From Escherichia phage ECML-4, in the sequence record JX128257: a stretch of DNA of 64,000 nucleotides; one strand, written 5' to 3'. Under the pieces are notes generated by a model. That model was given only the letters and a program-made list of their open reading frames with translations. It made no database searches and had not been told where the DNA came from. Every line of letters begins with the position of its first letter. Position 1 is the stretch's first letter. Positions 1,758-61,458 of this stretch are shown one piece after another. Position numbers and translations under genes: made by a program.

Positions 1758-1764
1758 CTAAATA
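1758..1764 (+). promoter_or_regulatory. Putative late promoter element CTAAATA
   Basis: One of nine CTAAATA copies found in intergenic DNA; eight lie 24-49 nt upstream of a start codon. This one is 34 nt before the ATG at 1798. Confidence 0.4.
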
Positions 1765-1797
1765 TCTCTATAAAATGGCACTAGATGGAGCATCAAA

Positions 1798-4700
1798 ATG
1801 CAATCTACAAATTTAAACCGTCGCCCGTATTGGGATGACTGGAATCCTGGGAAACGTTTTTCACGGATTCTTTTTCGTCCGATGCCTATCAAGGTTCAGA
1901 CTCGCGAACTGAACCAGATGCAGACTATTCTTCAGGATCAAATTGAAAAACTGGGCAACCATCTGTTCAAAGATGGTTCTATGGTTATCCCTGGCGGTCT
2001 GACGATCACCAATGCCGCAGTCTCTTTGAAATTCACTTTGGCGGGTGGTACTGAATTCACCGATCTGGAAGGTATTTCTGAACTCTACGTTTTGGGGAAA
2101 GACAATAACGCCAAAGCGCGTGTGTTGTCTCTTGAACGTGATCTGTCTGCTCCTGATACGATGTTGGCCATCCTTGAGATGACTGAAGCGGGTAATGCTG
2201 ACGGATTCCATGTTAACGATAATCTGTATTTCCAGACTTACGACGTGAATGATAATTTCATTCGTATTGGTTATGGGATCGCGGCTGCTGTAACTGGTTC
2301 TATCGTTGCTCGTATGACGAAAGGCGTTTACTTCATTCGTGGGATGTTCCTTGATGTTGATGACGCGACTCTCATCGTCGATAAAACTTCAAACACTTCT
2401 TCCCATCGCGTCGGGTTTAAAGTCACCGAAACCATCGTGACTGAATCTGAAGACGAATCCCTTTATTCAAACGCTCAGGGAACGATTAACTCCAAAGCCC
2501 CAGGCGCTCATCGTCTTCGAATAGATCTGGTCTTATCTCGATTTGATTATGATGCTGTGGTTGAAGACTTTGTTGAACTGGCCAAAGTTCGTGATGGTAA
2601 AATCCAGTCTATGGTGACTCAGTCCACCTATAATATTCTGGAAGACACGTTGGCTCAACGGACGTATGAAACCAACGGCGATTACAACGTTTCAACGCAT
2701 CAGATCGACATCCGCGAACACCTGAAAGTCAATAACAATGGTGGAGTATTCAATGCTGCTGATGGCGGCGACGAAAGTAAATTCGTGTCTGTAATGAAAC
2801 CAGGTATTTCCTATGTTCGCGGTCGTCGTATCGAAAACGTCGGGGAAGAGTTGGTGATCGTTGACAAGGCACGGGATACCGATGTCCTGAATAACACGCC
2901 TGTCGCAGTTGCTACAGGGAATTATCTGGTCACCAAGAACTCCAAAGGTGTTCCAGTAATATCTCGCACTGTGCGATACAAGTTATTGAACGCATCCGGC
3001 GCTACTCAAGCCACGGCGTTGTGTATATCCGCTGAACGCAATTCAACTGAATTCCGCCTGTACATGCGTGATTTAGTTGTGACTGGGGACGCGTCCACTA
3101 TCACCAAAGTGTCTTATGAAGAAAGTGGGATCACCATGTTTTCTGCTGAACTGGAATCCAACCAGTTTAACCAGAGTTCTATGGTAGACCTGATCTTCTC
3201 TCTTCCGGTCTTCGGTGTTAAAACATTAGCGCCAACAGGTTCCGTGGATATCAACTACACAGTCCTCAGAACTTATAAGGTGACGCTAGACAGCAGCGGT
3301 TCTGGTTCTATTTCAGCCCCGCTGGGATATAGTTTTTCCCCAGAATTTTCGTTGTACTCTGCAGCGAAATCAGATGGTTCGGAAGCGCAGTTCGATATCT
3401 CTGGCTCTTTGTCTTTGACTGGTTCTCCGGTCGGTTCGGCGCTGCAGATTTCTCTGGGTAGTGGTAATGCTAACCAGTCAATCAATTTGCTGGCGCTGAT
3501 GATTCGTACCACGGCCACAATCAAAACGAAGACCATCACTGAAACAACTGAAACAGTGACGTTCACATCACAGACCAGCCGTCCTTTGGCGAATCACGAT
3601 GGTTGGAAATTGGTATCGGTCAAAAACGATACTGGCGCAGACGTGACCTCTAGCTTCGTTCTAGATGGTGGACAGCGTGATGCAGGGTATTACAAGTCTA
3701 ACTTGTTATCCAGCGCTGGAGCAATCTCAGGGACGTATACAGTGGTGTATCAATACTTCGCCCACAGTTCCGGTGATTTCTTCTCTGCTGATTCGTATAC
3801 TTCGATGGATTATAAAGATATCCCGAATTATACATCTTCTACATCAGGCGCGGTGTACGGCCTGGCAGATAGTTTAGATTTCCGTCCGAAAATCACCAAC
3901 GGAACTTCTGACACAGATATGGTTCGTCCAAACACTGCAGTTATTCTGGACACAGAATATTATCTGCCGCGTATCGACGCGATTTATCTGGCAGACAACG
4001 GTGTGTTTGGTGTGGCTCGAGGCATCAGTTCTAATAATCTGGCTTCTCCAGCAATCCCAGCGAACGCCATGCGTTTGTATGAATTGTTGATCCCGCCGTA
4101 TACACCGAATATTGATGATATCCAAATTCGAACTATTGATAATCGTCGTTATACAATGCGCGATATCGGTAAACTGGAAACCCGTATTTCCAATGTTGAA
4201 TACTATACCTCTCTGTCACAGCTGGAATCTTCAGCGATGACACAGCAAGTGTTTGACCCCATCACGGGTAATCCTCGTTTCAAAAATGGTATTGCAGCTG
4301 ATCCGTTCAAAGACTTCCGGTTGATTGATGACTTGTCTGAAGATTGGATGGGTTCTATCGATACCGAAAACGGACGTCTACGCCCGTTTGTACAACAGAA
4401 CGTTGTTGACATGACTCCGGTTGGCTGGAACAAAGTGATGGATGGGATGGTGGTTTGTAATTACACACCTGAAATCTCAGTGAACCAAGAATATGCGACG
4501 ACGACGATCAACGTTAACCCGTATGCAGTATTCAATTGGGAAGGTTTCTTGAAGATTAACCCGACCACAGACTACTGGTTCGAAAACTATTATGTTGCCC
4601 CGCGTATTATTAATGAAACGATCAACACCCGTGGTACTGTACAAGAAGGTTCAGTGTACGGAACATGGCGGACTGTTTCTGTTTCTGATCGTGTTTGGGA

Positions 4701-8242: not shown

Positions 8243-8273
8243 TTATCAATTCCTCAAAAGAATTAATGATTGA

Positions 8274-8280
8274 CTAAATA
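8274..8280 (+). promoter_or_regulatory. Putative late promoter element CTAAATA
   Basis: ctAAATACCTTCAAAATTGAG, nearly identical to the element upstream of the sheath gene; 24 nt before the gp14 ATG. Confidence 0.45.
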
Positions 8281-8303
8281 CCTTCAAAATTGAGGGTAAA
8301 GTC

Positions 8304-8945
8304 ATGGCTACTTCAAAATATTTCAACTATACAGCACACCAAGGTACTCAAAAATTAATTGATGACTTGGTGGTCGAGATGATACAATTGCGTGGGATTG
8401 ACGTCAAGTATATTCCACGTTCTATTGTTGAAAAATACCCAATTTTAAACGAGGCCGAACACAAATTCGACCAAGCGTTTGACATCGAAGTGTACATGCA
8501 GGATTATCAAGGCTTCAACACACAGATGTGGGAAAAGTTCGGCGGTATTCAATTACAAGATGAAGTGACCTTCACTATTGCTCGTCGTCGTTTTTCAGAA
8601 GTTATTGGTAATGGTCCAGGCCTTGAACAAATGCCTCAGGAAGGTGATTTGATATATCTCCCAATGGCGAACAAAATATTCAAAGTGAATAACCCGAATA
8701 ACGACGAAGAATTTATGCAATTCGGTAAATGGTACACATATTCCTTACCGTGCACGTTGTTCCAATATGGTAATGAAGATTTTGATACTGGTGTATCTGA
8801 AATTGACGACATCGATAAACGTTTACAAGATCTAGACGGCGATGGTGTCTATAAAGATGCCAGTCTACAGACAGATAACCAATTTGCGGACGAAATAGAG
8901 AAAGATCTTTCGCCCAATAAAATGAAGATAGACTTCGGGGAATAA
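8304..8945 (+). CDS. 14: Neck protein gp14
   Basis: Size and position between gp13 and gp15 as in T4; start/stop abuts gp15. Confidence 0.65.
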   Translation: MATSKYFNYTAHQGTQKLIDDLVVEMIQLRGIDVKYIPRSIVEKYPILNEAEHKFDQAFDIEVYMQDYQGFNTQMWEKFGGIQLQDEVTFTIARRRFSEVIGNGPGLEQMPQEGDLIYLPMANKIFKVNNPNNDEEFMQFGKWYTYSLPCTLFQYGNEDFDTGVSEIDDIDKRLQDLDGDGVYKDASLQTDNQFADEIEKDLSPNKMKIDFGE

Positions 8946-12523: not shown

Positions 12524-12530
12524 CTAAATA
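12524..12530 (+). promoter_or_regulatory. Putative late promoter element CTAAATA
   Basis: cactAAATATCTTTCAAATTGAG, 43 nt before the sheath ATG. Confidence 0.45.
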
Positions 12531-12572: not shown

Positions 12573-14468
12573 ATGGCAACTCAAAGCTTCAGCGTTGCGC
12601 CGTCCGTACAGTGGACTGAGCGTGATGCCACGCTTCAGACTTCTCCGTCCGTGGTTGTTCAGGGCGCGACAGTCGGCAAATTTCAATGGGGTGAAGTCGA
12701 ACTCCCAGTGCTGGTGACTGGTGGTGAGACGGGTTTGGTGAAGAAATTCTTCAAACCTAATGACAGCACTGCGACAGATTTCCTTGTGATTGCAGACTTT
12801 TTGTCTTACAGCTCTATGGCATGGGTCACTCGTGTTGTTGGTCCTCTGGCCAAGAACTCTGTCACCAAAGGCCAGACAGCCATCACGATCAAAAACAAGC
12901 TGGATTTTGAAACAGCAAGTCCGTCAGCGTCTATCACTTGGGCTGGTCGTTATCCAGGATCTCTGGGGAATGACATCGCCATCAATGTTTGTGACTCCGC
13001 TGGATTCCCGACATGGGAATTCCGTAACAACTTTGCGTACGCACCTCAGTCTGGTGAATTCCATGTTGTGGTTGTAGACAAAGTTGGGCGCATTACTGAC
13101 TCTGCAGGCGCAGTCGGTCAGGTTGACCGTATATCTGTTTCTGGCACGGCAACTGCAGCTGGCACCATCAGTGTGGCAGGTGAAGATATCGCATATCTGG
13201 ATACTGATACTCCGGCCACTTTGGCGACCAAAATTGGCGCGGCGCTGACGGCGCTAACAGATGTTTATTCTTCTGTCGTTGTTAAGTCTAACACTGTCAT
13301 CGTGACCCATAAAGCTATTGGTCCCCAGACAGTTACTGCTATTGTTCCAGATGATAAGGGGCTGACTGCAACCGCCGTGATTACCACTGTTGGTGCATCT
13401 GGTTCTATTATCGAAAAATACGAACTCATGCAGAACACACAGGGTTCCAAAAAGTCCGATGGCGCGAATGCGTACTTCAAAGATGTCATCAATGATACAT
13501 CAAATTGGGTGTACACCTTCGCTACCGCTCTGGCCGCAGATGTTGTTGAATTAGAAGGCGGCGTAGACGACTACAATATCAACCGTGTCGCGGCTATCCA
13601 AGTTCTGAACAATGCCGAAGCATATGATGCGAAGCCAGTATTTGCATACTGTGAAGAGTTGATTGAACAACAGGCATTAATCGACTTGTCTACCGAGCGA
13701 AAAGACACCGTTTCCTTCGTGTCGCCTTTGCGTGATACCGTGGTCGGCAACCGTGGCCGTGAGATGGACGATGTGGTCGCTTGGCGTGAAAGTCTGGTGC
13801 GCGACTCCTCCTATTTCTTCATGGACGACAACTGGGCATACGTGTACGATAAATACAACGATAAGATGCGCTGGATCCCTGCTTGCGGCGGTACAGCGGG
13901 TGTTTGGGCACGTAGTATTGAAATCGCGGGTATCTACAAATCTCCTGCGTTCCACAACCGTGGCAAATACAACAACTACAATCGAATGGCGTGGTCTGCG
14001 TCTTCCGATGAACGTGCCGTGTTGTACCGCAACCAGATTAACAGCATCGTGACCTTCTCCAATGAAGGTATCGTGTTGTATGGTGACAAAACTGGTCTGA
14101 CACGTCCGTCTGCTTTCGATCGTATCAATGTTCGCGGTCTGTTTATTATGGCAGAACAGAACATCGCTGCAATCGCCAAATATTACCTTGGTGAGAACAA
14201 TGATGCGTTCACTCGCAGTCTGTTCAGCAACGCTGTTCGTCCTTATATTCGCCAGCTGGCAAATATGGGCGCGATCTACGATGGTAAAGTCAAGTGTGAC
14301 GAAGATAACAACACTGCTGACGTTATTGCGGCAAACCAGATGGTCGCTGGTATCTGGCTGAAACCGGAATACAGCATTAATTGGATCTACTTGGATTTTG
14401 CTGCCGTTCGACCGGACATGGAGTTCAGCGAGATCGAGTCCGGCGGCGGTATCGTCGCGGCGTCCTAA
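12573..14468 (+). CDS. 18: Tail sheath protein gp18
   Basis: N-terminal GATVGKFQWG matches T4 gp18 (AALAGKFQWG); C-terminal block (GDKTGLTRPSAFDRINVRGLF) matches T4 (GDKTATSVPSPFDRINVRRLF); ATG with AGAAGGAA site. Confidence 0.85.
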   Translation: MATQSFSVAPSVQWTERDATLQTSPSVVVQGATVGKFQWGEVELPVLVTGGETGLVKKFFKPNDSTATDFLVIADFLSYSSMAWVTRVVGPLAKNSVTKGQTAITIKNKLDFETASPSASITWAGRYPGSLGNDIAINVCDSAGFPTWEFRNNFAYAPQSGEFHVVVVDKVGRITDSAGAVGQVDRISVSGTATAAGTISVAGEDIAYLDTDTPATLATKIGAALTALTDVYSSVVVKSNTVIVTHKAIGPQTVTAIVPDDKGLTATAVITTVGASGSIIEKYELMQNTQGSKKSDGANAYFKDVINDTSNWVYTFATALAADVVELEGGVDDYNINRVAAIQVLNNAEAYDAKPVFAYCEELIEQQALIDLSTERKDTVSFVSPLRDTVVGNRGREMDDVVAWRESLVRDSSYFFMDDNWAYVYDKYNDKMRWIPACGGTAGVWARSIEIAGIYKSPAFHNRGKYNNYNRMAWSASSDERAVLYRNQINSIVTFSNEGIVLYGDKTGLTRPSAFDRINVRGLFIMAEQNIAAIAKYYLGENNDAFTRSLFSNAVRPYIRQLANMGAIYDGKVKCDEDNNTADVIAANQMVAGIWLKPEYSINWIYLDFAAVRPDMEFSEIESGGGIVAAS

Positions 14469-14471
14469 ATA
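14465..14471 (+). promoter_or_regulatory. Putative late promoter element CTAAATA overlapping the sheath stop codon
   Basis: cCTAAATATAAG, 33 nt before the homing endonuclease ATG. Confidence 0.35.
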
Positions 14472-14478
14472 TAAGACA

Positions 14479-14502
14479 CATGCCCTCTTCGGAGGGCATT
14501 TC
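14479..14502 (+). terminator. Hairpin (TGCCCTC-ttcg-GAGGGCA then TTTC)
   Basis: Inverted repeat after the sheath gene; it contains the ribosome-binding site of the next gene, so it may be an attenuator rather than a full terminator. Confidence 0.4.
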
Positions 14503-14503
14503 A

Positions 14504-15226
14504 ATGATCTTTATAATAGAGAACATCGAAATGATCGGAAGTGTCTACAAAATCACAAATCTCACCAACCAGAAAGCCTATATCGGGATCACCACACGCG
14601 ACCCAATAGACAGGTGGTGGGAGCATTGCAACAACGCTCAGAACGGCTCTGATTACTTCATTCACCAGGCCATCCGTAAATACGGCGAAGAATCATTCTC
14701 GGTTCAGGTAATCGCGCAGACCAATTCTATAGAAGACCTCAAAGAATTAGAGATCATCTTGATAAAACAGCACGGCACTCATATGTCTACACAGAAAGGT
14801 TATAACAAGACTTGGGGTGGTGACGGCGCAACTTCTTCAGGGAAAGCGGGGGCAATAGACGTTAATACTGGTGAACGTTTAGGACTAATAGATTGTTCAG
14901 ATCCTCGTTGGGATATGGGGGAGATTATTAGTTGCAGACATGGAGTCAAACATAAAGATAATACCAGGTTGTCCAACTATGCCAAAACTCGGACTGGCGT
15001 TAAGAACCCCAATGCCAAGAAGTTCAAACTGATTTCACCATCCGGTGAAGAACATGAGATACATGGGAATTGCAAAGAATATGTGGAAAGCCTTGGGTTG
15101 AAATATTCAGCTCTTTATGATTATATTGAGAAAGACATCCCTGTTCCTCCGCCTTCTATATTTCATAAGAAGAATGCTTCACAAGAACGATTGAACACTG
15201 TTGGGTGGAGACTCGAAAGAATATGA
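14504..15226 (+). CDS. GIY-YIG homing endonuclease (free-standing, Seg-like)
   Basis: N-terminal VYKITNLTNQKAYIGIT (GIY-YIG) plus downstream R and E/N positions; GGAGGG site upstream; inserted between the conserved sheath and tube genes. Confidence 0.75.
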   Translation: MIFIIENIEMIGSVYKITNLTNQKAYIGITTRDPIDRWWEHCNNAQNGSDYFIHQAIRKYGEESFSVQVIAQTNSIEDLKELEIILIKQHGTHMSTQKGYNKTWGGDGATSSGKAGAIDVNTGERLGLIDCSDPRWDMGEIISCRHGVKHKDNTRLSNYAKTRTGVKNPNAKKFKLISPSGEEHEIHGNCKEYVESLGLKYSALYDYIEKDIPVPPPSIFHKKNASQERLNTVGWRLERI

Positions 15227-15681
15227 TATACGCATACAAAATTGAAATGGTTTGTAATGGAAAGGTCTACATCGGTGTGACCAATCACCCACAACGAAGA
15301 TATGATCAGCATTTTGCGAATGCCTTTCATCATGGAGTCCAAAGTGAATTGTATGACGCCATGCGTAAGTATGGAACATCTGGATTTACTTTCGTTGTAA
15401 TTGCTCAGACCGATGAAGTCCATAAATGGGAATTAGAGAAGCAACTCATCGCTCAATATAATTCTTATGAGATGGGTTACAACATGAATAAAGGCGGTAA
15501 TGATGGAAGTCATATGCTGGGTAAAACTGCAGCAAAATTGACATCCACAGGTGAACACATTGGTCTTGTTTCTCTCATAGATCCCCGTTGGGAATTGTGT
15601 GAAATCGAACCTGTTTCAAGTAATGTTCATCATGGTTTCGATCTTTCTTCTATGAAGATTAAAAGATTGACGACTAATTAG
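15223..15681 (+). CDS. Second GIY-YIG homing endonuclease paralogue, shorter (about 152 aa)
   Basis: IYAYKIEMVCNGKVYIGVT motif; shares a DPRW(D/E) block with the upstream copy; start overlaps the upstream stop (ATGA). Confidence 0.6.
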   Translation: MIYAYKIEMVCNGKVYIGVTNHPQRRYDQHFANAFHHGVQSELYDAMRKYGTSGFTFVVIAQTDEVHKWELEKQLIAQYNSYEMGYNMNKGGNDGSHMLGKTAAKLTSTGEHIGLVSLIDPRWELCEIEPVSSNVHHGFDLSSMKIKRLTTN

Positions 15682-16276: not shown

Positions 16277-16312
16277 CTCACTAATTACAAGAAAATGTTG
16301 AGGACTTAGATC

Positions 16313-17995
16313 ATGGCTGGATACGGCAGAGGGTTCTTCGGTTTGTTTGGCGGCGGCGGTTTGGTGAACGCTAAAGTCGACACCGATAAGTTAGCCCAAA
16401 AACAAGATGAACGGTTGCTAACCAAAGCGACAGTTGTTGCTCTGGACGACGCTCAAGACGGTTCTATAATCCTTCAGGGTGGTGCGAACACCTACAACTA
16501 TGTTGGCGTTGAAAGTGAACTTCTCAGCGTTAAAACAGTTGTGGAAGAATATCAGTCCATGGCTCAACAGCCTGAAATTCGCAAAGCGGTGGACATTATT
16601 GTCAATGATGTTGTCACCTGTGAGGAAGATGAAACTCCAGTGACAGTAAACCTTGACAAAGTTGAAGGGATATCTGATACTGTTAAAGAATCTATCACTG
16701 AATGCTTCAAAGAAGTTATGCACTTGATGGACTTTGACAATACGGCATATCAGAAGATCCGGAAATGGTATGTTGACGGTCGACAAGCATATCATGTCAT
16801 CGTTGATCCCACGAATAAAAAAGGCGGGATCAAGAAATTGGTTATGCTTGATTCTCGTTGCATTCGTCCTGTCTATATCGTTGAGAAGGCGATGCGTGAA
16901 GGCGGTATTGAAGCAATAGAATCTGTAACATTGAAGTATTATTACAACCCGAATTATAATCGAAACCAATTCACTGGCCAATCTGGTACTTCCCAGAACT
17001 TCCAGCCTTCACAGCAAGAACTCGTATTCGATGACGAAAGCATTGTTTACATCGATAGTGGTGAAGAGCCATTGGCCAATGGTATTGTCCCAGGCCTTTT
17101 AAATCCTGCTATCCGTCCGTTGAACAACCTGGTTACGACTGAAGATGCGACTGTAATTTATGCCATCACTCGCGCCCCTGAGAAACGCGCATTCTATCTT
17201 GACGTCGGTACTCTCGGTAAGAAATCTGCTGAAGAATACATGACCATGATGATGGGTAAATTCAAAAACCGCAACGCATATGACCGCACCACTGGTAAGA
17301 TAACAGGTAATGCCCATCTTATGGGTATTGCAGAGGATTATTGGTTGCCGCGCCGCGAAGGTCAGAATGCTACAGAGATCGCGACTGTTGGGGGTGGGAA
17401 TCAATTGGGTGAAATGGATCACGTGAACTATTTCCGTGAAAAACTCTATGATGCTCTAATGATCCCTAAGAGCCGCCTCCAAGAGGAAGGATCTATTAAC
17501 ATTGGGGGTTCTAACCTTGCGGAGATTACACAGGAAGAGCTGCGTTTCAGCAAGTTCTGTGCTGGGTTACGTCGTCGTTACTCCCATTTCTTTATGGAGT
17601 TTTTACGTCGCCAATTAATTTTAAAAGGTGTGACTGACGAAAAAGATTGGAATGAAAAAATCAAGCCGTTTATTAAGTTTGAATTCACTTCTGATAGCTA
17701 TATTCGTGAGCAACAAGAAAACGCCATATTAAATGATCGCCTGGCTTCTCTGAACACTGTTGAGCCTTTTGTTGGTTCTATATTCTCCATCGATTATGTC
17801 ATGCGGAATGTTCTGCGTATGTCAGACGAAGAAGTTAAAGAACAACAGGCTAAGATCGCGGAAGAGAAGAAGAAAGGTCTCTATCCGAAGGTTCAAGCAG
17901 ATGAAACTGGCAATTATAGTGGTTCAGATGTTAGTCCGTTGAAGTTTAAACCTGAGACTCTCCCATTCTCCGGTTCAACAGACGATAGTATTTAA
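16313..17995 (+). CDS. 20: Portal protein gp20
   Basis: 560 aa, immediately downstream of the tube gene as in T4; a late-promoter-like variant CTAATTA lies 26 nt upstream. Confidence 0.8.
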   Translation: MAGYGRGFFGLFGGGGLVNAKVDTDKLAQKQDERLLTKATVVALDDAQDGSIILQGGANTYNYVGVESELLSVKTVVEEYQSMAQQPEIRKAVDIIVNDVVTCEEDETPVTVNLDKVEGISDTVKESITECFKEVMHLMDFDNTAYQKIRKWYVDGRQAYHVIVDPTNKKGGIKKLVMLDSRCIRPVYIVEKAMREGGIEAIESVTLKYYYNPNYNRNQFTGQSGTSQNFQPSQQELVFDDESIVYIDSGEEPLANGIVPGLLNPAIRPLNNLVTTEDATVIYAITRAPEKRAFYLDVGTLGKKSAEEYMTMMMGKFKNRNAYDRTTGKITGNAHLMGIAEDYWLPRREGQNATEIATVGGGNQLGEMDHVNYFREKLYDALMIPKSRLQEEGSINIGGSNLAEITQEELRFSKFCAGLRRRYSHFFMEFLRRQLILKGVTDEKDWNEKIKPFIKFEFTSDSYIREQQENAILNDRLASLNTVEPFVGSIFSIDYVMRNVLRMSDEEVKEQQAKIAEEKKKGLYPKVQADETGNYSGSDVSPLKFKPETLPFSGSTDDSI

Positions 17996-18002
17996 AGTTC
18001 AA

Positions 18003-18009
18003 CTAAATA
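18003..18009 (+). promoter_or_regulatory. Putative late promoter element CTAAATA
   Basis: aaCTAAATATAG, 28 nt before the ATG at 18037. Confidence 0.4.
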
Positions 18010-18036
18010 TAGAAAATTAATTCGGAGATCAAAATC

Positions 18037-18207
18037 ATGAGCGCAATTGATATCGTTCGTGCAGTAATTGACGGTGACACTGAAACTGCTGTTGCAGAAT
18101 GCAACATGGAACTTGATGCACGTAGTCAAGAACTATTGAACCAAGGCACAGCATATGTTCTGGATTCTATCGCAGCCGATATGAATTCAAACAACAACGG
18201 CCAGTAA
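18037..18207 (+). CDS. Small prohead core protein (gp67-like by position)
   Basis: 56-aa ORF absent from the supplied track (below its length cut-off); GGAG site upstream; sits between portal and protease as in T4. Confidence 0.45.
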   Translation: MSAIDIVRAVIDGDTETAVAECNMELDARSQELLNQGTAYVLDSIAADMNSNNNGQ

Positions 18208-18215
18208 GGAGATGC

Positions 18216-18533
18216 ATGATGGAAATCACAGAGATCGCCACGTTCGCTGATTTCCTGGCCTCTCGTATGGACGAGCAGCGAGTCATCGATAAAGTGAACG
18301 CTCGTGGTAAACGCCGCCGCCGCTTGAAATGTGCCCCTGGGTTCAAATTGTCGGCTGATGGTTCACGTTGTGAAGTTATGGACGCCAGCGAACGTCGTGT
18401 TCGCAAGATCGGCAACCGCAAAGCCCTCCGCTCTAAAAAGCGTATGGGAATGGGCTATCAACGTAAAATCGAGCGCCGCAAGAAAAAGGCTATGAAGTTC
18501 CGCAAAATGATGGGACTGAGTAAGAACAAGTAA
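18216..18533 (+). CDS. Highly basic prohead core/internal protein (gp68-like by position)
   Basis: AAGGAG site; Arg/Lys-rich (RRRRLK, RRKKKAMKFRK); located between the gp67-like and gp21 genes. Confidence 0.45.
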   Translation: MMEITEIATFADFLASRMDEQRVIDKVNARGKRRRRLKCAPGFKLSADGSRCEVMDASERRVRKIGNRKALRSKKRMGMGYQRKIERRKKKAMKFRKMMGLSKNK

Positions 18534-18540
18534 GGAGTTT

Positions 18541-19209
18541 ATGATGAAACTGTTGCGTGAGATCACAGCGATAGGGAAGGATCTTCAAATCGGTGAGGCC
18601 ACAACCTCAACTGGTGGGAAGGCCATGTTCATCGAAGGTCCGTTTGTGATGTGTAACCAAGTCAACCGTAACGGGCGTAACTATGATCTGCAGAAAGTGG
18701 GTATTCCTGCTGTCGAAGCATACGACAAAGAGTATATCCAAGATCGTCGCGCAATCGGTGAAGTCACACATCCTGACTATCCTTTCCCTAATTTAGTGGA
18801 AGCTGCGCTCAAAACCGAATCCCTTCGCTGGGAAGGCACTAATGCCATCGGTCGGGCGCGAATTTTAAACACACCAAAAGGCCAAATCATTCGTGCATTG
18901 GCCGAAGCAGACTTCAATCTGGCCGTATCTACTCGTGGCCTGGGTGAGACTAAGTCGGTAAGCGGTTATGATGATGTTCAGCCTGGCTTTATGCTTACCG
19001 CCGTTGACGCAGTTGACCGTCCTTCTGGACAAGTTTGTTATGTTAAGGCTGTGAGTGAATCTGTTGAATGGCAGCTGGACGAGGCTTCGGGTATTTGGAT
19101 GCCTCGTGATGTTAAAGGGAAAGTTGTAGACCAGTTGGTGAAAGCCAATATCCAGGTTGAAGACGATTTCCTGCGCCGCCTTGATGCAGCATTGAATCAT
19201 CTGGGCTGA
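18541..19209 (+). CDS. 21: Prohead core protein and protease gp21
   Basis: IGEVTHP / AVSTRGLGE / TAVDAVDRP align with T4 gp21 LGELNHP / GVSSRGLGS / VGVDAVWGP. Confidence 0.8.
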   Translation: MMKLLREITAIGKDLQIGEATTSTGGKAMFIEGPFVMCNQVNRNGRNYDLQKVGIPAVEAYDKEYIQDRRAIGEVTHPDYPFPNLVEAALKTESLRWEGTNAIGRARILNTPKGQIIRALAEADFNLAVSTRGLGETKSVSGYDDVQPGFMLTAVDAVDRPSGQVCYVKAVSESVEWQLDEASGIWMPRDVKGKVVDQLVKANIQVEDDFLRRLDAALNHLG

Positions 19210-19220
19210 ATTTCAGCTCA

Positions 19221-19227
19221 CTAAATA
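19221..19227 (+). promoter_or_regulatory. Putative late promoter element CTAAATA
   Basis: cactAAATACTG, 29 nt before the scaffold ATG. Confidence 0.4.
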
Positions 19228-19255
19228 CTGAAAAATCGTTCAGAAGGAAACTATC

Positions 19256-20095
19256 ATGAAACCTGAATTGCAAAATCTGTTTGAAGGCGTTAACGGCATC
19301 AGCCCAGATTTCCTGGATAAAGTATCCAATTTGCTGGAATCGAAAGTTGAAGCGGCTCGTCTGAAAGCTATCCAAGAAACCGAAGCAGCTGGCAACGTCG
19401 AGCGCCTGAATCTGGTAGAATCTCACCAGAAAGAAATCGCCGACCTGAAAGAAAATTTCATTCTGCAATTGGCTGGGAAAGTTGACTCATTCCTCAACGC
19501 GGTGGTTGAAGAATGGGCTAACAAAAATGCCCCAGCTATTGACGCTCAGATCAAAACTGAAGCTGCTGAACGCTTCCTCACTGGTTTCTCCAACGTGCTG
19601 AAAGAAGCAGGTGTGAGTTTCGCTACTGACCCAGATGGTCATATTGCCGCCCTCACCAGTCGCCTTGCTGAAGCAGAACAACGCGCCAACATGGCTAATA
19701 CAGAGTTGAGCCAACTCAAAGAAAGCGAGTCTAAACGCCAACGCACCGACGTAATTGATCGCATTTGTGAAGGCATGGTTGACACCAAGAAAGACACTGT
19801 TGTCAACCTGCTGGAAGGTATTGAATTCCAGACCGAGTCTGAATTCGAATCGCGTGTTCGCACCTTCCGTAATCTGGTAGAAGGTAAAGATGACTTCTCT
19901 GACAAAGTCGGTAAAGACAATGAAAAGGGTAAGCCGGATGGCGACAAGGCTGAAAAAGACATCAAAGAAGGTAAGAAACAGAAAAAAGAAGGTGATGATG
20001 TTGACGACGACAAAGACGACGACGACAAAGACGAAGTTGGCAAAGAAGTCAACGAAGCCGTCCGTCGCCAGATCAGCGCCATTCTGAACGGCTAA
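19256..20095 (+). CDS. 22: Prohead scaffold protein gp22
   Basis: Coiled-coil-rich with a very acidic Lys/Asp/Glu C-terminal tail; position between protease and capsid genes. Confidence 0.75.
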   Translation: MKPELQNLFEGVNGISPDFLDKVSNLLESKVEAARLKAIQETEAAGNVERLNLVESHQKEIADLKENFILQLAGKVDSFLNAVVEEWANKNAPAIDAQIKTEAAERFLTGFSNVLKEAGVSFATDPDGHIAALTSRLAEAEQRANMANTELSQLKESESKRQRTDVIDRICEGMVDTKKDTVVNLLEGIEFQTESEFESRVRTFRNLVEGKDDFSDKVGKDNEKGKPDGDKAEKDIKEGKKQKKEGDDVDDDKDDDDKDEVGKEVNEAVRRQISAILNG

Positions 20096-20108
20096 TTTTA
20101 GCAGCCAC

Positions 20109-20134
20109 AGCCCTCGAAAGGGGGCTTGATTTTG
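20109..20134 (+). terminator. Terminator-like hairpin after gp22
   Basis: AGCCCTC-gaaa-GGGGGCT followed by TGATTTTG. Confidence 0.45.
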
Positions 20135-20186
20135 AACTACTAAGTAATTTCAACTTAACTGAATATCAATGTAAGGAACGAGCATC

Positions 20187-21509
20187 ATGACTAAGAAACT
20201 TGTAACCGAAGAAATGCGCAAACAGTGGCTGCCAGTTCTCCAAAAAGAATCTGAAGCCATCCAACCTCTGTCTGCCGAAAACGTAACCATCCGTCTGATG
20301 CAAAACCAGGCCGAGTGGAACGCTAAAAACCTGGGCGAATCCGACGCTCCTGGTTCTGTAAACAGCACTGTCGGTAAATGGCAGCCAGTCCTGATCGACA
20401 TGGCAAAACGTCTGGCGCCGATCAACATCGCAATGGACTTCTTCGGCGTTCAGCCGCTGTCTGGTCCTGATGGTCAGATCTTCGCACTGCGTGCTCGCCA
20501 AGGCGTTGGTGACGGTTCTACTACCGCTCAGGCGCGTAAAGAACTGTTCATGAACGAAGCCGATTCTGGCTACTCTGGTGATGGCACTGTACAGGCTGGC
20601 GACCCGTCAGGCTTCAGTCAGGCTGAGATCGAAGGTTCCGGCTCTGTCGTGACCACTATCGGTAAAGGTATGCCGTCAACCGACGCGGAACTGCTGGGTA
20701 CTACCACCAATCCGTGGGCGCGTGTTGGTATCACCGTTCAGAAAGCGACCGTTACTGCCAAGTCTCGCGGCCTGTATGCTGATTACAGCCATGAACTGCG
20801 TCAGGATATGATGGCAATTCACGGCGAAGACGTGGACAATATCCTGTCTGACGTGATGGTAACTGAAATTCAGGCGGAAATGAACCGTGAATTCATCCGC
20901 ACCATGAACTTCAGTGCTGTTCGTTTCAAAAAATTCGGCACCAACGGTGTTGTTGATATCGCGCAGGACATCTCCGGTCGTTGGGCGCTGGAAAAATGGA
21001 AATTCCTGACTTTCATGCTGGAAGTCGAAGCGAATGGTATCGGCGTTGACACCCGTCGTGGTAAAGGCAACCGTGTTCTGTGTTCTCCGAACGTGGCGTC
21101 TGCTCTGGCGATGTCCGGCATGCTGGACTATGCTCCGGTTCTGCAGGAAAACACCAAACTGGCTGTTGACCCGACTGGTCAGACCTTCGCGGGTGTTCTG
21201 TCCAACGGTATGCGCGTCTATGTTGACCCGTATGCTGTAGCAGAATATATCACCCTGGCGTACAAAGGCGCGACTGCGCTGGATGCTGGTATCTTCTTCG
21301 CACCGTATGTGCCGCTGGAAATGTACCGCACCCAGGGTGAAACCACCTTCGCTCCGCGTATGGCGTTCAAAACCCGTTACGGCATCTGTGCTAACCCGTT
21401 CGTTCAGATTCCGGCTAACCAAGACCCGCAGGTTTACGTGACTGCTGACGGTATTGCTCAAGACAGCAACCCATACTTCCGTAAAGGTCTCATCAAATCT
21501 CTGTTCTAA
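20187..21509 (+). CDS. 23: Major capsid protein gp23
   Basis: DMAKRLAPINIAMDFFGVQPLSGPDGQIFALRA aligns with T4 gp23 GMVRRAIPNLIAFDICGVQPMNSPTGQVFALRA; C-terminal FFAPYV...FKTRYGI...NPF also conserved. Confidence 0.9.
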   Translation: MTKKLVTEEMRKQWLPVLQKESEAIQPLSAENVTIRLMQNQAEWNAKNLGESDAPGSVNSTVGKWQPVLIDMAKRLAPINIAMDFFGVQPLSGPDGQIFALRARQGVGDGSTTAQARKELFMNEADSGYSGDGTVQAGDPSGFSQAEIEGSGSVVTTIGKGMPSTDAELLGTTTNPWARVGITVQKATVTAKSRGLYADYSHELRQDMMAIHGEDVDNILSDVMVTEIQAEMNREFIRTMNFSAVRFKKFGTNGVVDIAQDISGRWALEKWKFLTFMLEVEANGIGVDTRRGKGNRVLCSPNVASALAMSGMLDYAPVLQENTKLAVDPTGQTFAGVLSNGMRVYVDPYAVAEYITLAYKGATALDAGIFFAPYVPLEMYRTQGETTFAPRMAFKTRYGICANPFVQIPANQDPQVYVTADGIAQDSNPYFRKGLIKSLF

Positions 21510-52014: not shown

Positions 52015-52785
52015 ATGGGTATGAATTTTGTAGACAGGGGTGATAACGTCACCAAATATTTCACTGACGAAGATAACGATCGAGTTGTGGGGATATTGCG
52101 TGATTGGATCCCTGCTCGTAAAAAGGCATTAGCCGAAGGAACACCCCTACCAAGAATCCCCAATTATGTGGCCATGAATGTTCAGATGATAATCAAGAAT
52201 ATGAGTATGCGCTACAACTACCGTGATTATCCATATCGTGAAGACATGGTGAGTGAAGCGGTTGTGAACATCCTTCGTTACCTTCACACCTTTGACGTTA
52301 GCCATATCGGCAAGAAAGGAAAGATCAACTTCTTCTCTTGGGTGACTATGTGTGCTGATCGCTCATTCGCCAAGAAACTCACGAGTGAAGAAGAACACAA
52401 CTATATTAAATTGCGTTCCTTTGAAGAAGCAGGTGGGTTCGCAGCTTTATCGGATGACCCAGACTTCCAACAACAAACCTTCGTTGATAGCACTGGGATA
52501 ACGATGGACTTTCGTGAACGCATCGGTAATTTCGAAAATAAGAAAGAAGCCCAGCGTGAAAAGGAACGCCAAAAACAAACGGCTATCAAAGAAGAGGAAA
52601 AGAATAAGAAAATCCCTCGCGGTATACTTCAATGTCTTACGAAGAGTGAAAATACCATTACCGCTGACGCCGAAGATAATTCAGATAATGACTTTGGCTC
52701 TACTCAATTTAGTCTTGAAGATATAATGGACAGCCCCACATTGTTAGCCGAATCAGTTGGAGAAAAGAATAATGGCGATTGCTAA
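52015..52785 (+). CDS. 55: Late-transcription sigma factor gp55
   Basis: Central region (VAMNVQMIIKNMSMRYNYRDYPYREDMVSEAVVNILRYLHTFDV...FFSWVTMCADRSFAKKL) aligns with T4 gp55; position before gp47/gp46. Confidence 0.65.
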   Translation: MGMNFVDRGDNVTKYFTDEDNDRVVGILRDWIPARKKALAEGTPLPRIPNYVAMNVQMIIKNMSMRYNYRDYPYREDMVSEAVVNILRYLHTFDVSHIGKKGKINFFSWVTMCADRSFAKKLTSEEEHNYIKLRSFEEAGGFAALSDDPDFQQQTFVDSTGITMDFRERIGNFENKKEAQREKERQKQTAIKEEEKNKKIPRGILQCLTKSENTITADAEDNSDNDFGSTQFSLEDIMDSPTLLAESVGEKNNGDC

Positions 52786-53887
52786 AATTGGCGATTTACA
52801 CATCGGGAGCCGCAATGGTTCCCGTTACGTTCGTGAATTCATAAAGAATTATCTCATCAACTATTTTATTCCCGAATTGGTAGATGCAGACATTAAAGAA
52901 GTTTGGCAATTCGGCGATACATTTGATGTTCGCAAATTTATGTATGGCCGCGACAAAGATTGGTTGAAAGATGAACTGACTCCAGCCCTGAGAAAGGCGG
53001 GTATCAAATGGAATGGCATCGTTGGAAACCATGATATCACATTAGAAGAATCTAACCGTATCAACTGGCCATCCTATCTGAATGAATTAGCGCCAGACGT
53101 CTATCATTATTACAGTGAACCCACTGAAGTTTCGATTGAAGGCGAAAAGGTATTGCTTCTCCCATGGATCAATAAAGAGAATTATGATGCATCTGTTAAA
53201 GCGATACAAGATACAGACGCCAAGTACTGTTTTGCGCATCTGGAGTTGGCAGGGTTCAAAATGTACCAGTCCTCTGTATGTGATAAAGGTCAGATCGACG
53301 TGGCGCTCCTTTCCAAGTTCGAACGCGTGGATACCGGACATTTCCATACCCGTTCGATGGAAGGTAACATTCAGTATATTGGGACTCCTTATCACCTTAC
53401 CTGGGAAGACCATAAAGACGGGACGAACCGAGGATTCTATGTAGACGACATGAAAGGCGGGGAATTGTTTATTCCCAACAACGAGCAACAAACGTTGTTC
53501 CGATTCATCGAATACGACTACACCCAAATGTCTTCCGACACCGAAGGAAACTGGATTGACCCAGATTGGCTAAACAATGGTTTGGGTATTGAAGGGCAAA
53601 TCGTTAAAGTGATTGTACAGAACCGTGATAATGCCAAGCATTATGAAAAGTTCTGCGACGCGCTGAAGCGCTGTAAATGCATCGATTACAACTTTATAGA
53701 TCGGACTATCACAGTCTCGTCTGAGAAGGTAGAAGTCACTGAAGAGATGGTGGCGACTGATGCTGTGGAAGTCCTGAAGAAAGATATCCGCGCCGCCAAT
53801 AATATCCAGCGCCCTGAAAATGTTTGCAAATTAGCAGAACAATTCTATAATGCTGCCCAACAACGCCTGAACACATTGGATGCATAA
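52772..53887 (+). CDS. 47: Recombination nuclease subunit gp47 (Mre11/SbcD-like phosphoesterase)
   Basis: N-terminal IGDLHIG, later GNHD and H-x-H metallophosphatase motifs; directly upstream of gp46. Confidence 0.8.
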   Translation: MAIAKIGDLHIGSRNGSRYVREFIKNYLINYFIPELVDADIKEVWQFGDTFDVRKFMYGRDKDWLKDELTPALRKAGIKWNGIVGNHDITLEESNRINWPSYLNELAPDVYHYYSEPTEVSIEGEKVLLLPWINKENYDASVKAIQDTDAKYCFAHLELAGFKMYQSSVCDKGQIDVALLSKFERVDTGHFHTRSMEGNIQYIGTPYHLTWEDHKDGTNRGFYVDDMKGGELFIPNNEQQTLFRFIEYDYTQMSSDTEGNWIDPDWLNNGLGIEGQIVKVIVQNRDNAKHYEKFCDALKRCKCIDYNFIDRTITVSSEKVEVTEEMVATDAVEVLKKDIRAANNIQRPENVCKLAEQFYNAAQQRLNTLDA

Positions 53888-56860: not shown

Positions 56861-57125
56861 AATACAGATTGCTTGTGATATCGCTGTGGAATTATGGAAT
56901 CAGCGAAATAAACATCATCAGGTAGCATTGACACCAAAACGTTACCTAGAGCAAGGTGGGTTGATCGTTGTTGACGCCGTCTTGGGTTTCAACAAGTACA
57001 CAGATATGCAAATCCTCCAAGGGGATTTCATAGTGGCATCAAAATCAGCATGGGACGATCCTATGGAGTTTGTCTACGGCTGGTTAGAGTGTATTGAGGA
57101 ATCATACCATCTGATCTACGAATAA
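56841..57125 (+). CDS. Hypothetical small acidic protein
   Basis: ORF overlapping the DUF4326 gene end; hairpin follows. Confidence 0.35.
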   Translation: MSEEKDEIQIACDIAVELWNQRNKHHQVALTPKRYLEQGGLIVVDAVLGFNKYTDMQILQGDFIVASKSAWDDPMEFVYGWLECIEESYHLIYE

Positions 57126-57221
57126 GGTGAAGGGCACTAAATATCAAGTGCCCTTTATCTTTTAACCCTGTCAGGAGGCTCAATCGAGCTGCAAGTCGAC
57201 AAACACATAAGGAACGCCATC

Positions 57222-57839
57222 ATGACGATGACAACGTTGAAGGCCATGGCCTTGTCCGTGACCTTTACCATTGCCAGCGGGAGTGTGCACGCTTCCCAAA
57301 GTACCACCCAATGTGATTACGAATTTTCTGATCAGCAACTTTCAACTATGGCCACTGCCTATCACATAGGCAAACAGCAAGACCTTGGTTTCACCCTAGC
57401 CGCGATATCATGGAGGGAAAGCCGCGCCGGAGAAGATGTGGTATCCATGCGGAATAACCTGAAATCGGCTAATATGGGGGCATTCCAAAATCGCGTCCAA
57501 ACCGTTGGGAAACGGGAGGGATGCAAAACACAGAAGTGTTACGCCAACGTGGCGATTAAATTGCTGGTCAATCAAGAGTACGCAGCCAATGCAGCCCTTG
57601 ATGAAATGAATTTCTGGCTTGGGTATCATAACCAAAACATCCGCAAATCGCTCTCCTCTTACAATGCCGGTTTCAGTCGTAACCAAAAATCCAATTCATA
57701 CGCTGCTGATGTCGTGAAGAAGGCTAAATATCTTCAACGATGTGTGTCTTTCAAAGGCATGGCAATAAACCCGAAGGTCGACCCAGGAGTGATCGCCATG
57801 AATAAGCGCACGATTGAGAAACTCAAGAGGACCCGATAA
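57222..57839 (+). CDS. Lytic transglycosylase (SLT domain) with N-terminal signal or signal-anchor-release-like segment
   Basis: Catalytic region WRESRAGEDVVSMRNNLKSANMGAFQ and SYNAGFS (SLT family E-S...GxxQ...YNxG); N-terminal weakly hydrophobic Ala/Ser/Thr-rich segment MTMTTLKAMALSVTFTIASGSVHA. Confidence 0.55.
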   Translation: MTMTTLKAMALSVTFTIASGSVHASQSTTQCDYEFSDQQLSTMATAYHIGKQQDLGFTLAAISWRESRAGEDVVSMRNNLKSANMGAFQNRVQTVGKREGCKTQKCYANVAIKLLVNQEYAANAALDEMNFWLGYHNQNIRKSLSSYNAGFSRNQKSNSYAADVVKKAKYLQRCVSFKGMAINPKVDPGVIAMNKRTIEKLKRTR

Positions 57840-59032: not shown

Positions 59033-61432
59033 ATGGCCATCCAATCTTTCTTAAATTTCCTTGACGAGTCCAAACAATTGGACGAAGCGTTTAACTCCGC
59101 TCCATACGAATTGACTTTCGGCAAGAAAAATGCTGGTGACATTTTCTTCACGTTCGTAGACGAAGATGAAAAAGAATTCCGCATCCAATTTTATACCCCG
59201 CAGGGGCTGGGCAAGAACGTTCGTCAGGTCTTCATAGGCCAGAAACGTGGTTCAACCTATCCAGACGCAATCGGTCGTTTCAAAAACCCAATGCGTGTCA
59301 TCGCATCCATGATCGAAGCGACTAAACAATTCATGGCGACACCGCTGGGTAAAACCATTGATGGGTTTGCGATTAACTTCTCCAAGAAAGCTCTAGAACG
59401 CGGAACGACGTTACTCCCAAAAATTATTCGTCAATCTGGTCTGAAGCAGAAACTCAACGTCATGGATCTGACTTATACCCCAATCCCTGACCGTGCCTTC
59501 GTATGGGTTGTGCGTAAAGGCAAGGATCCTGCTCAGGTATTTGATGGTCCGAAAATGAAAGGCGTGACTTGGGACGATCCAGACAAAGTCGGAGACGTTC
59601 CGGTTCAGAACAACACCCCTGATGTAGGAGCAGCGCCTTCCCCAAACACAGATTGGAATATCTCCGTCATGGCGAAGTCCAACGGTATCTTCAGTTCTGT
59701 TGTGAAGGTAGTCGGTGCGAACGATGTGACTCTAAGTTCCAATGATCTGGCCATCATGGTCAAAGATGGCGCGATGGCGAAGATTGCCCGCACTCAGTCG
59801 ATCGCTCAGGTGACCGTATTCAACAAAGAATATGTCGGTCGCGGTGAAGTGGATCGCAAAATCATGGCAGCTTCTGACCGTCAGGGAATGGGATGGGAAC
59901 TGAAGTCTGGTGGGAAGATCGTAGCATACGTCGAGTTTGGAATAGGGGCTACTGCTCCCGTCGACATGAAAACTCTTCCAAAAACCGGTTCTATGGATGA
60001 TCTGCGCAACCAGGGTTATATCGCCCGCATCTTGGGCATCGTCGATACATATGCTCCTCAGCAAGTCGGCATGTATGCTGGTGAAAAATTGACTCGGGTT
60101 GGTGCTGGCAAATATCGAACTTCTGGCGGGTTGGATATTCAAGTCTATTTCTGGGGGATTACTAATGGCAAACTTTCTGTAGAAGTGGTTTCTGATTTAT
60201 CTGGCAATGAACAGCTGCTGCTGGAAGGCGACGTGAAAAACGCTGCTTTTGAAATCGTCAGTGCGATATCCCGTGCTGCTGATTCTCAGTTCAAAGGTGA
60301 AGTGGAATGTCGTGTTGTTCCGATCAACGGTGCCCCATACCCGATTCAAAAGGTTTCCCGTTCCCAGGGTTATTCTTATGTCGATTGTATTTCGTTTACC
60401 TTGAAGATCGCCGATGCATTGTTAAATCGTTTTACTCTGGGTAAGGCAGTCAAACTCGATCTGATAAAAGAGTTCCCTCGAACGACGTTTATTGTTCGTT
60501 ATGACTGGCGCAGCAAAGATACTCTGATGGTCCAGTCTTCTGATGGGAAGACTATCTTCGGCGAAATCAACACAAATTCCAGTGATAACGCTGTCATCAC
60601 TGCGAACCTGAAAGCCCCAAGCAATGCGAAGATATTTGGTGAAACCGTTCATGGGTTCTCTGTGGCTTGGGACTTCCAGTTCCCTGCGGGTAGCCAGCTG
60701 CAAGCCGCACGGTTCGTTACGAACGTGACTTACGACTTCGATCGTAATAAGGCCAACATCACGACCATGCTGACCGAAAATGGCCGAAATGTAGTCAATA
60801 GCAGCGGATATGACATTCAGTTATCTGTCAAGTCTGTGCAAGATGCATTGAATGAGACTTCACAACGCCTAAAAGACGCTGCGGCTCAATTGAGCCATCT
60901 CAGTTCATCAAACTATAACCCGAACAAGCTGTTTCTGAATGATATCACCGTCAGTAAGTTTGGTGCAATTATGTTCCAAGACAAAGATCTGGCGCAGTCC
61001 AGAAACCGCACTGCAGTCATTGATGCCCTGGCTCGCGCCAAAGACCAAGCTGCTGGGGGCAAGAACAGCAGCGATCTGGCCACATATTCCGATTCCATCC
61101 GCAACAGTGCTCCCAACGGACGAGATCTTGATTGGCAGGTATACGTGACCAATAGCGGCGCAGTTCTTAACGTCGATTGGAGTATCACCTTCCGTCGCAA
61201 CACAACCGAAGGTGCATATCGTGAGTTCAAAGATCAGATTAACCGTGCCAACCAGTACCTGCAAACGGTATACAACGATGCGAAGGCGAAGGGATACAAC
61301 CCGACCGAACCGAATCTCATGACTTTGGATAGCGCCCGTCAGTCGGACGAATGGGCTATGAGCAATGGTGACAGTGCTTACAGTGAATATGAACAATCAC
61401 TGGGTGGTAATCTCCAGATCCGTCTGAAATAA
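59033..61432 (+). CDS. Large hypothetical protein (799 aa)
   Basis: CAGGAGA site; preceded and followed by terminator hairpins; no motif recognised. Confidence 0.45.
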   Translation: MAIQSFLNFLDESKQLDEAFNSAPYELTFGKKNAGDIFFTFVDEDEKEFRIQFYTPQGLGKNVRQVFIGQKRGSTYPDAIGRFKNPMRVIASMIEATKQFMATPLGKTIDGFAINFSKKALERGTTLLPKIIRQSGLKQKLNVMDLTYTPIPDRAFVWVVRKGKDPAQVFDGPKMKGVTWDDPDKVGDVPVQNNTPDVGAAPSPNTDWNISVMAKSNGIFSSVVKVVGANDVTLSSNDLAIMVKDGAMAKIARTQSIAQVTVFNKEYVGRGEVDRKIMAASDRQGMGWELKSGGKIVAYVEFGIGATAPVDMKTLPKTGSMDDLRNQGYIARILGIVDTYAPQQVGMYAGEKLTRVGAGKYRTSGGLDIQVYFWGITNGKLSVEVVSDLSGNEQLLLEGDVKNAAFEIVSAISRAADSQFKGEVECRVVPINGAPYPIQKVSRSQGYSYVDCISFTLKIADALLNRFTLGKAVKLDLIKEFPRTTFIVRYDWRSKDTLMVQSSDGKTIFGEINTNSSDNAVITANLKAPSNAKIFGETVHGFSVAWDFQFPAGSQLQAARFVTNVTYDFDRNKANITTMLTENGRNVVNSSGYDIQLSVKSVQDALNETSQRLKDAAAQLSHLSSSNYNPNKLFLNDITVSKFGAIMFQDKDLAQSRNRTAVIDALARAKDQAAGGKNSSDLATYSDSIRNSAPNGRDLDWQVYVTNSGAVLNVDWSITFRRNTTEGAYREFKDQINRANQYLQTVYNDAKAKGYNPTEPNLMTLDSARQSDEWAMSNGDSAYSEYEQSLGGNLQIRLK

Positions 61433-61451
61433 ACCATAGCCCCTTCGGGGG

Positions 61452-61458
61452 CTAAATA
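61452..61458 (+). promoter_or_regulatory. Putative late promoter element CTAAATA
   Basis: gCTAAATACATC directly after a terminator hairpin, 22 nt before the ATG at 61480. Confidence 0.4.

Follow-up and report, generated by a model that had tools for sequence, protein, structure and literature searches.

The CTAAATA element of Escherichia phage ECML-4 as probable core of late promoters in Ackermannviridae, with copies located in hairpins

Background

Late promoters of phage T4 are A/T-rich, -10-like elements with the octamer TATAAATA, which precede virion genes without a -35 element and are transcribed with help from gp33 and the gp45 sliding clamp. In case of the T4 genes e, soc, 49 and I-TevI, the late promoter lies inside a hairpin that occludes the ribosome-binding site on longer early transcripts. 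T4 gp55 takes up the flipped promoter bases of positions -12, -9 and -8 in pockets formed by N13, L54, R57, F86, H95, Y97 and T99 (PMC7892883). The heptamer CTAAATA, beginning at -12, was predicted as late promoter of Aeromonas phage Aeh1 (Nolan et al. 2006; PMC1524935) and restated as a/gC at -13/-12 in the 2010 review of T4 late transcription (PMC2988020). The same heptamer recurs upstream of virion genes in a stretch of 64,000 nucleotides (nt) of Escherichia phage ECML-4 (sequence record JX128257), which is analyzed here at its full length and referred to as the window.

The source of the window is a Kuttervirus, i.e., a ViI/CBA120-like member of the Ackermannviridae. Its head-gene segment (16313–21509) shares 99.8 % identity with Escherichia phage vB_EcoM_3HA11 (hereafter 3HA11) and 99.6 % with Salmonella phage Vi01, both likewise belonging to Kuttervirus. 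Two regulatory motifs of this family reportedly originate from the proposal of the genus Viunalikevirus by Adriaenssens et al. in 2012. Both, namely CTAAATAcCcc and TTCAAT[N14]TATAAT, are cited for the family under the designation "two unique regulatory motifs" (PMC7283392). Of two papers on the ViI group from 2011, one had regarded the late recognition sequence as not yet identified (PMC3184105), and the other had searched with the T4 octamer (PMC3121705). The late-promoter motif of the family is already published from sequence analysis and is not new for ViI-like phages. The respective finding of the earlier note on this DNA, which recovered the signal from the raw sequence alone, is correct and had already been described in silico.

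Occurrence and placement of CTAAATA

The element, mostly found as (a)CTAAATAy and including the variant CTAAGTA, very probably constitutes the -10-like core of the late promoters of this phage, to be read by its gp55 homologue. An exact search on both strands revealed 12 copies of CTAAATA in the window, all of them on the plus strand, which carries nearly all window genes. Intergenic DNA makes up 8 % of the window; 10 of the 12 copies lie in such DNA or extend across a stop codon, and nine reside 15–50 nt before a plus-strand start codon (28–49 nt counted from the first, 21–42 nt from the last motif base). The underlying gene list was curated against the annotations of 3HA11 and Vi01 and omits a minus-strand gene at about 25650–26270, whereby the intergenic fraction is slightly inflated and the enrichment estimates are conservative.

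The raw count is only about twofold above the 6.2 ± 2.3 copies expected from shuffles for both strands (1 of 100 shuffles reaching 12), which could point to chance or to a compositional effect of A/T-rich intergenic DNA. Such an origin is effectively refuted, and so improbable as to be negligible, in view of the placement: among the 105 heptamers of identical composition, which served as control for A/T-rich spacers, CTAAATA ranks first (P = 7.5e-6 for intergenic placement; P = 4.4e-8 for a position 15–50 nt before a start codon). Conservation across genera despite diverged flanks and depletion inside genes, both described below, speak against it as well. When k-mers of intergenic and of coding DNA were compared in an unsupervised screen, (A)CTAAATA and TTCAATAA came out as the two top motifs, and these are exactly the two quoted for the family. 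The T4 octamer occurs a single time in the window, as expected by chance; from it the family motif differs at -13/-12, in line with the earlier claim that the element is distinct from that of T4.

Along the window, the copy at 1758–1764 is located 33 nt before the ATG (1798) of the gene for a 1612-aa DUF4815/VriC-like protein, that at 8274–8280 is 23 nt before the gp14 neck gene (8304), and that at 12524–12530, 4 nt past the stop codon of the large terminase gene, is 42 nt before the tail sheath gene (12573). The gp14 and sheath copies share a block with 18 of 21 positions identical in an ungapped alignment, as had been noticed before. The copy at 14465–14471 overlaps the sheath stop codon and lies 32 nt before a GIY-YIG homing endonuclease gene (14504–15226); further copies precede a small head-core gene (18003–18009, 27 nt before 18037; "gp67-like" in the earlier note), the prohead scaffold gene (19221–19227, 28 nt before 19256) and uvsW (28068–28074, 25 nt before 28100, overlapping the exonuclease stop codon). 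The remaining intergenic copies are those at 57137–57143 (78 nt before the gene at 57222), 61452–61458 (21 nt before a gene for a 190-aa protein at 61480) and 62077–62083 (31 nt before a DUF5856 gene at 62115).

The two other copies are intragenic. The one at 41445–41451 resides within a 738-aa open reading frame (ORF), 543 nt away from the next start codon, and is probably not a promoter; the one at 57724–57730 resides within the gene at 57222–57839, with the next gene 108 nt away, and is also present in Vi01. Each of the nine positions listed in the earlier note is an exact plus-strand CTAAATA, but the copies at 62077, 41445 and 57724 had been overlooked. Likewise, its range of 24–49 nt to the start codon holds at the upper end, whereas the lower end is 28 nt. 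Equal frequency of the motif inside coding regions, named there as an argument against a promoter function, was not found, copies being depleted inside genes.

Three variants, all on the plus strand, occupy comparable positions: CTAAGTA at 20140–20146 (40 nt before the major capsid gene at 20187), CTAATTA at 16281–16287 (25 nt before the portal gene at 16313) and TTAAATA at 24890–24896 (23 nt before the gene at 24920).

Conservation in relatives

The syntenic structural module was compared with those of the Agtrevirus SW16-7, Klebsiella phage HMGUkp5 and the Vibrio phages GR28A (Campanilevirus) and K484, the portal proteins of which share 81, 83, 48 and 44 % identity, respectively, with that of the window. 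The enterobacterial phages possess the orthologous heptamer before the genes for the 1612-aa protein, gp14, the sheath, the small head-core protein, the scaffold and uvsW. At the sheath gene, CTAAATA is present in all five phages compared, both Vibrio phages included. Other sites alternate between A and G at motif position 5. Upstream of the gene for the 1612-aa protein, CTAAATA is identical in SW16-7 and HMGUkp5, with CTAAGTA at the same place in GR28A; the small head-core gene has CTAAATA in HMGUkp5 and K484 and CTAAGTA in SW16-7 and GR28A; the scaffold gene has CTAAATA in SW16-7, HMGUkp5 and GR28A and CTAAGTA in K484. The capsid variant CTAAGTA of the window recurs in SW16-7 and HMGUkp5, with CTAAATA in both Vibrio phages, and CTAATTA at the portal gene is kept across three enterobacterial genera, with CTAAATA in K484 and CTAAGTA in GR28A. 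In GR28A, eight late genes carry the motif 25–45 nt before the start codon, three as CTAAATA and five as CTAAGTA. The flanks of the matching sites in the Vibrio phages are unrelated in sequence, the motif itself being retained. Upstream of uvsW, the heptamer is invariant in 12 of 12 distinct relatives from IMG/VR, with variable adjacent bases. On the basis of these comparisons, the element is best given as CTAA[A/G]TA plus weaker one-off variants, which adds putative promoters for the capsid and portal genes that the earlier note had left blank.

The complete Vi01 genome, assembled from four pieces, contains 23 copies of CTAAATA (7 on the plus and 16 on the minus strand), compared to 10–15 expected genome-wide from Markov models. 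Seventeen of the 23 point towards an annotated gene that begins at most 85 nt further downstream, and they do so on both strands; five are intragenic and one is in an unannotated stretch. Intergenic copies are about 15-fold enriched, and intragenic ones are depleted (5–6 versus 12–14 expected; P = 0.005–0.04). Nine of the 17 target genes are annotated as tail, baseplate, neck or head genes, the others belonging to DNA metabolism or having no known function. Beyond the orthologues of window sites, the targets include gp48 and gp6, three genes for tailspikes or fibres, one RuvC-like gene, and Vi01_183 and Vi01_184, both unnamed and annotated as "phage associated protein". The window site at 57137 is matched in Vi01 at 65344 on the minus strand.

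The strict strand specificity of the motif, its position between cistrons and its frequent location beside or within hairpins would also suit a site that acts in the RNA, i.e., in processing or stability, e.g., by cleavage through an AU-preferring endoribonuclease which separates late cistrons; in addition, the adjacent gene at 57222–57839 is labelled as RegB-like RNA endonuclease in one relative. This label is supported neither by PHROGs nor by Pfam. Moreover, the motif matches the T4-type late -10 element in sequence and register (-12 to -6), and the invariant C together with the tolerance of only A or G at one position fits protein–DNA recognition. Finally, the 17 Vi01 copies facing a gene on either strand include divergent pairs (gp48 at 20228) where no upstream transcript is expected. 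Thus, an RNA site is very unlikely as an explanation of the motif.

Site anatomy and a second promoter class

Alignment of 18 sites, of which the window contributed 10 and Vi01 another 8, revealed no column upstream of the motif with 70 % conservation; therefore, a -35 element is absent. The base preceding the motif C is A or C in 7 of 18 sites each for both genomes together, and A in 6 of the 10 window copies. A pyrimidine occupies position 8 in 17 of the 18 sites (10 C, 7 T), and positions 9–11 lean to C (11, 7 and 8 sites, respectively). The full cCcc extension occurs mainly at the Vi01 tailspike genes and Vi01_183, most window copies lacking the whole tail. Of the 18 sites, 13 have an A seven nt past the motif, where transcription could plausibly start.

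Compared to the quoted consensus CTAAATAcCcc, the window displays the same core heptamer and also the companion motif TTCAAT[N14]TATAAT, and it differs in nothing essential; the variants CTAAGTA, CTAATTA and TTAAATA fall outside the quoted consensus.

The second motif of the k-mer screen, TTCAATAA, shows an intergenic enrichment equal to that of the late motif, with one copy in coding DNA (a small minus-strand gene at 8108) and nine intergenic copies at 21589, 23136, 23158, 35174, 42381, 45831, 48469, 58483 and 58515. All of the latter are downstream of the capsid gene, and five of them are within the early-gene region at about 35–49 kb. Some copies pair with a TATAAT-like hexamer 13–16 nt downstream, and TTCAATAA matches the family motif TTCAAT[N14]TATAAT, which presumably constitutes the early promoter class. 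Within the structural module, matches to sigma-70-like promoters are not enriched (43 versus 35.9 ± 6.7 expected), so that a competing promoter class is not apparent there. Two doublets of TTCAATAA (23136/23158 and 58483/58515) flank terminator hairpins and share the block tttacttcTTCAATAA.

This second class bears on the possibility that CTAAATA belongs to a promoter of another temporal class (middle or delayed-early), served by host sigma-70 and a phage co-factor instead of gp55. Several targets could be taken in its favour, namely uvsW, the RuvC-like resolvase, the homing endonuclease and the DUF5856 gene. However, in T4 the late promoters also serve uvsW, gene 49 and genes for homing endonucleases. 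In addition, 9 of the 17 Vi01 targets are annotated virion genes, the motif is devoid of a -35 or extended -10 feature, and the phage possesses a separate sigma-70-like early motif in TTCAAT-N14-TATAAT. Assignment to a middle or delayed-early class is accordingly improbable.

The gp55 homologue and recognition of the motif

A late promoter read by gp55 requires the corresponding protein, and the gp55 homologue that the earlier note had placed in the window could indeed be confirmed: the plus-strand ORF at 52015–52785 matches PHROG 234 "late sigma transcription factor" (E = 1e-53). It is located between RNase H and gp47, as in relatives with a late sigma factor annotation. A gp45 sliding-clamp homologue is likewise encoded in the window (30321–30989, plus strand; according to the annotation of the 3HA11 and Vi01 orthologues), and gp33 corresponds to Vi01_069c, which resides outside the window.

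Searching the PDB with the gp55 homologue of the window yielded no relative even at E = 10. T4 gp55 (PDB 7D7C, residues 11–168) was therefore aligned via hand-picked homologues from Straboviridae, Aeh1 and cyanophages. In this alignment, the window protein shares 18 % identity with T4 gp55; among the pocket residues, N13, R57, F86 and T99 recur at the corresponding positions, and L54, H95 and Y97 are replaced by M, F and W, respectively. The loop that contributes to the base pockets in T4 reads NFFSWVT compared to NPHAYIT in T4, with 6–8 residues inserted before it. With 256 aa the protein is longer than T4 gp55 (185 aa), and a clamp-binding-like motif (GILQCL) near its C-terminal region is followed by an acidic extension of about 50 aa.

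Alignment of the motif to TATAAATA places the C of the family at -12, where T4 has its pocketed A, and the alternation of A and G at -8. Among the 10 window copies, 6 have the commonest form, ACTAAATA, which agrees with the T4 octamer in 7 of 8 positions; the other forms agree in 6 of 8. Shared with T4 late promoters are also the A/T-rich, -10-like character, the missing -35 element, the position before virion genes and the presence of genes for gp55, gp33 and gp45 homologues. Differences from T4 are the C instead of A at -12 (the T4 base stacking on Y97; PMC7892883), the tolerance of G at -8 and the C-rich bases just downstream. The altered pocket residues could fit the altered base at -12. 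A residue change common to Ackermannviridae and Aeh1 that might explain C at -12 was sought and not found, Aeh1 retaining the T4-like loop NPHAYIS. Since Aeh1 combines C at -12 with this loop, no specificity determinant emerges from the alignment; given the 18 % identity and the loop differences, base recognition is not readable from the T4 structure. Otherwise, the element resembles that of Aeh1 in the heptamer itself, in C at -12 and in the preference for A at -13, and the Aeh1 element, too, was found only by motif search, in that case before orthologues of late genes. Unlike the Ackermannviridae with NFFSWVT plus insertion, Aeh1 belongs to the Straboviridae. The C at -12 in Ackermannviridae and Aeh1 compared to A in T4 would represent a natural specificity swap for a minimal sigma factor that reads single-stranded -10 DNA, a question already evident from published work.

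In this reading, once DNA replication has begun, host core RNA polymerase together with the gp55 homologue would recognize the motif in the absence of any -35 element. Transcription would start about 6–7 nt downstream of the motif, where A is frequent, and would yield leaders of about 15–36 nt for the neck, sheath, head-core, scaffold, capsid, portal, baseplate and tailspike genes. The same promoters would also serve uvsW, the homing endonuclease gene and a few small genes.

The earlier supposition of a late-promoter consensus is supported by the sequence of the motif, its orientation before virion genes, its conservation, its depletion inside genes and the gp55, gp45 and gp33 homologues. Weighing against a function as gp55-read late promoter are the low identity to T4 gp55 just mentioned, with two of the three aligned loop residues (H95, Y97 and T99) being different, and the two intragenic copies in the window. 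Furthermore, several downstream genes fall outside the classic late genes, namely the DUF5856 gene (PHROG family "starvation-inducible regulator") and those at 57222 and 61480, which have no known function, and the literature searched contains no start-site or timing data for any phage of the Ackermannviridae.

The statistically supported site list for this genome and the A/G variant should be useful for operon annotation in Kuttervirus phages, which are in use for biocontrol of E. coli O157 and Salmonella. They may further serve the design of late-expression cassettes in engineered phages and of primers or probes for start-site mapping.

Hairpins around the motif

Several copies of the motif are associated with predicted hairpins. 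At 57137 and 62077, the motif occupies the loop of a terminator-like hairpin (57124–57161 and 62069–62094, respectively), the stem being rich in G+C and a T-rich run coming after it. In case of 57137, this agrees with the terminator hairpin reported previously at a distance of 85 nt from the next start codon, as counted from the first motif base. The copy at 61452 adjoins the hairpin GCCCCTTCGGGGGC.

At other sites, the motif is part of the 5' arm. The hairpin at 8271–8304 upstream of gp14 (-14 kcal/mol) has a 5' arm that overlaps with the motif and a 3' arm that includes both the Shine-Dalgarno sequence and the start codon; the hairpin at 28064–28101 upstream of uvsW (-20 kcal/mol) is built in the same way, its 3' arm pairing with the Shine-Dalgarno sequence and the ATG. 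The variant TTAAATA is contained in the 5' arm of the hairpin at 24892–24917 (-19.8 kcal/mol), behind which follow TTTTT and the ATG of the gene at 24920. This site and the Vi01 tailspike genes have the 5' arm AAATAcccc and the 3' arm ggggTATTT adjoining the ATG in common (stem of about -19 kcal/mol). The gp14 gene of GR28A displays the same hairpin design with unrelated sequence (CTAAGTATTCC...GGAATACTAAG-ATG versus ACCTTCAA/TTGAGGGT in the window).

The arrangement at gp14, uvsW, the gene at 24920 and the Vi01 tailspike genes, i.e., motif in the 5' arm and 3' arm over the Shine-Dalgarno sequence or ATG, is reminiscent of the T4 genes e, soc, 49 and I-TevI. It differs from these in being confined to a subset of sites, and some of the hairpins are rather terminator-like with the promoter in the loop. 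In the predicted read-through RNA, accessibility of the ribosome-binding site is slightly lower than for 63 control genes (P = 0.03), and the gain in accessibility upon truncation is slightly larger than in these controls, at marginal significance (P = 0.05). RNAalifold analysis of the uvsW leaders yielded a weak consensus (-6.3 kcal/mol) with two covarying pairs. Occlusion of the ribosome-binding site was consequently dismissed as a rule for motif-bearing genes, the difference from the controls being marginal and the covariation weak, and is regarded as a feature of a subset.

It is tentatively proposed that late promoters of Ackermannviridae are often deliberately nested in hairpins, i.e., in the loop or 5' arm of terminator-like or ribosome-site-occluding stems. 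RNA that enters from upstream would then either undergo termination or be unsuitable for translation, and late RNA started 6–7 nt past the motif, being devoid of the 5' arm, would escape termination and be translated. In addition, with CTAA[A/G]TA as family consensus, the capsid and portal genes would have promoters. Alternatively, the overlap of promoters and terminators in short spacers may simply be crowding. The nesting of motif copies in hairpins is possibly a new detail.

The GIY-YIG insertion downstream of the sheath gene

The GIY-YIG gene at 14504–15226 (insert 14469–15226) is positioned directly 3' of the sheath stop codon and is absent from Vi01, 3HA11, SW16-7 and HMGUkp5, the four phages compared. 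The CTAAATA at 14465 arises at the insertion junction, tcC-TAA being contributed by the sheath end and ATA by the insert. By the insertion, the usual sheath terminator is exchanged for a hairpin of the insert itself, which holds the Shine-Dalgarno sequence of the endonuclease gene. A second GIY-YIG gene is next in line (15223–15681).

Gene layout and further observations

Compared to 3HA11, the whole window aligns in blocks of 88–99 % identity with few indels. The gene order begins with the tailspike end, followed by the 1612-aa DUF4815 protein, neck, terminase, sheath, tube, portal, head core and protease. Downstream of the protease gene are located scaffold, capsid, small genes, gp3, uvsY, exonuclease, uvsW, and clamp plus clamp loader; then follow many early genes, RNase H, gp55, gp47 and gp46.

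The minus-strand gene at 25650–26270 is an orthologue of Vi01_141, and the stretch carries no annotation in 3HA11. Its orthologue in Vibrio phage K484, encoded on the opposite strand, has a CTAAATA of its own 34 nt upstream on the minus strand (position 12301 of the K484 piece); no matching copy was seen in the window before the Vi01_141 orthologue.

Stretches free of genes in the curated list are the gaps at 29952–30320 (369 nt), which separates a minus-strand ORF from the divergent gp45 gene, and at 37697–38137 (441 nt), as well as the unannotated window end at 63149–64000 (852 nt). Scans of the window for tRNAs and Rfam families yielded no match, these three stretches included.

The gene at 57222–57839 bears the label "RegB site-specific RNA endonuclease" in 3HA11. 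Its matches are a PHROG of unknown function and, below threshold, the Pfam SLT transglycosylase, so the label looks unsupported by either database. The gp47 gene (52772–53887) is intact in the window and annotated in two pieces in 3HA11, where the BLAST blocks overlap, which suggests an insertion or duplication in 3HA11.

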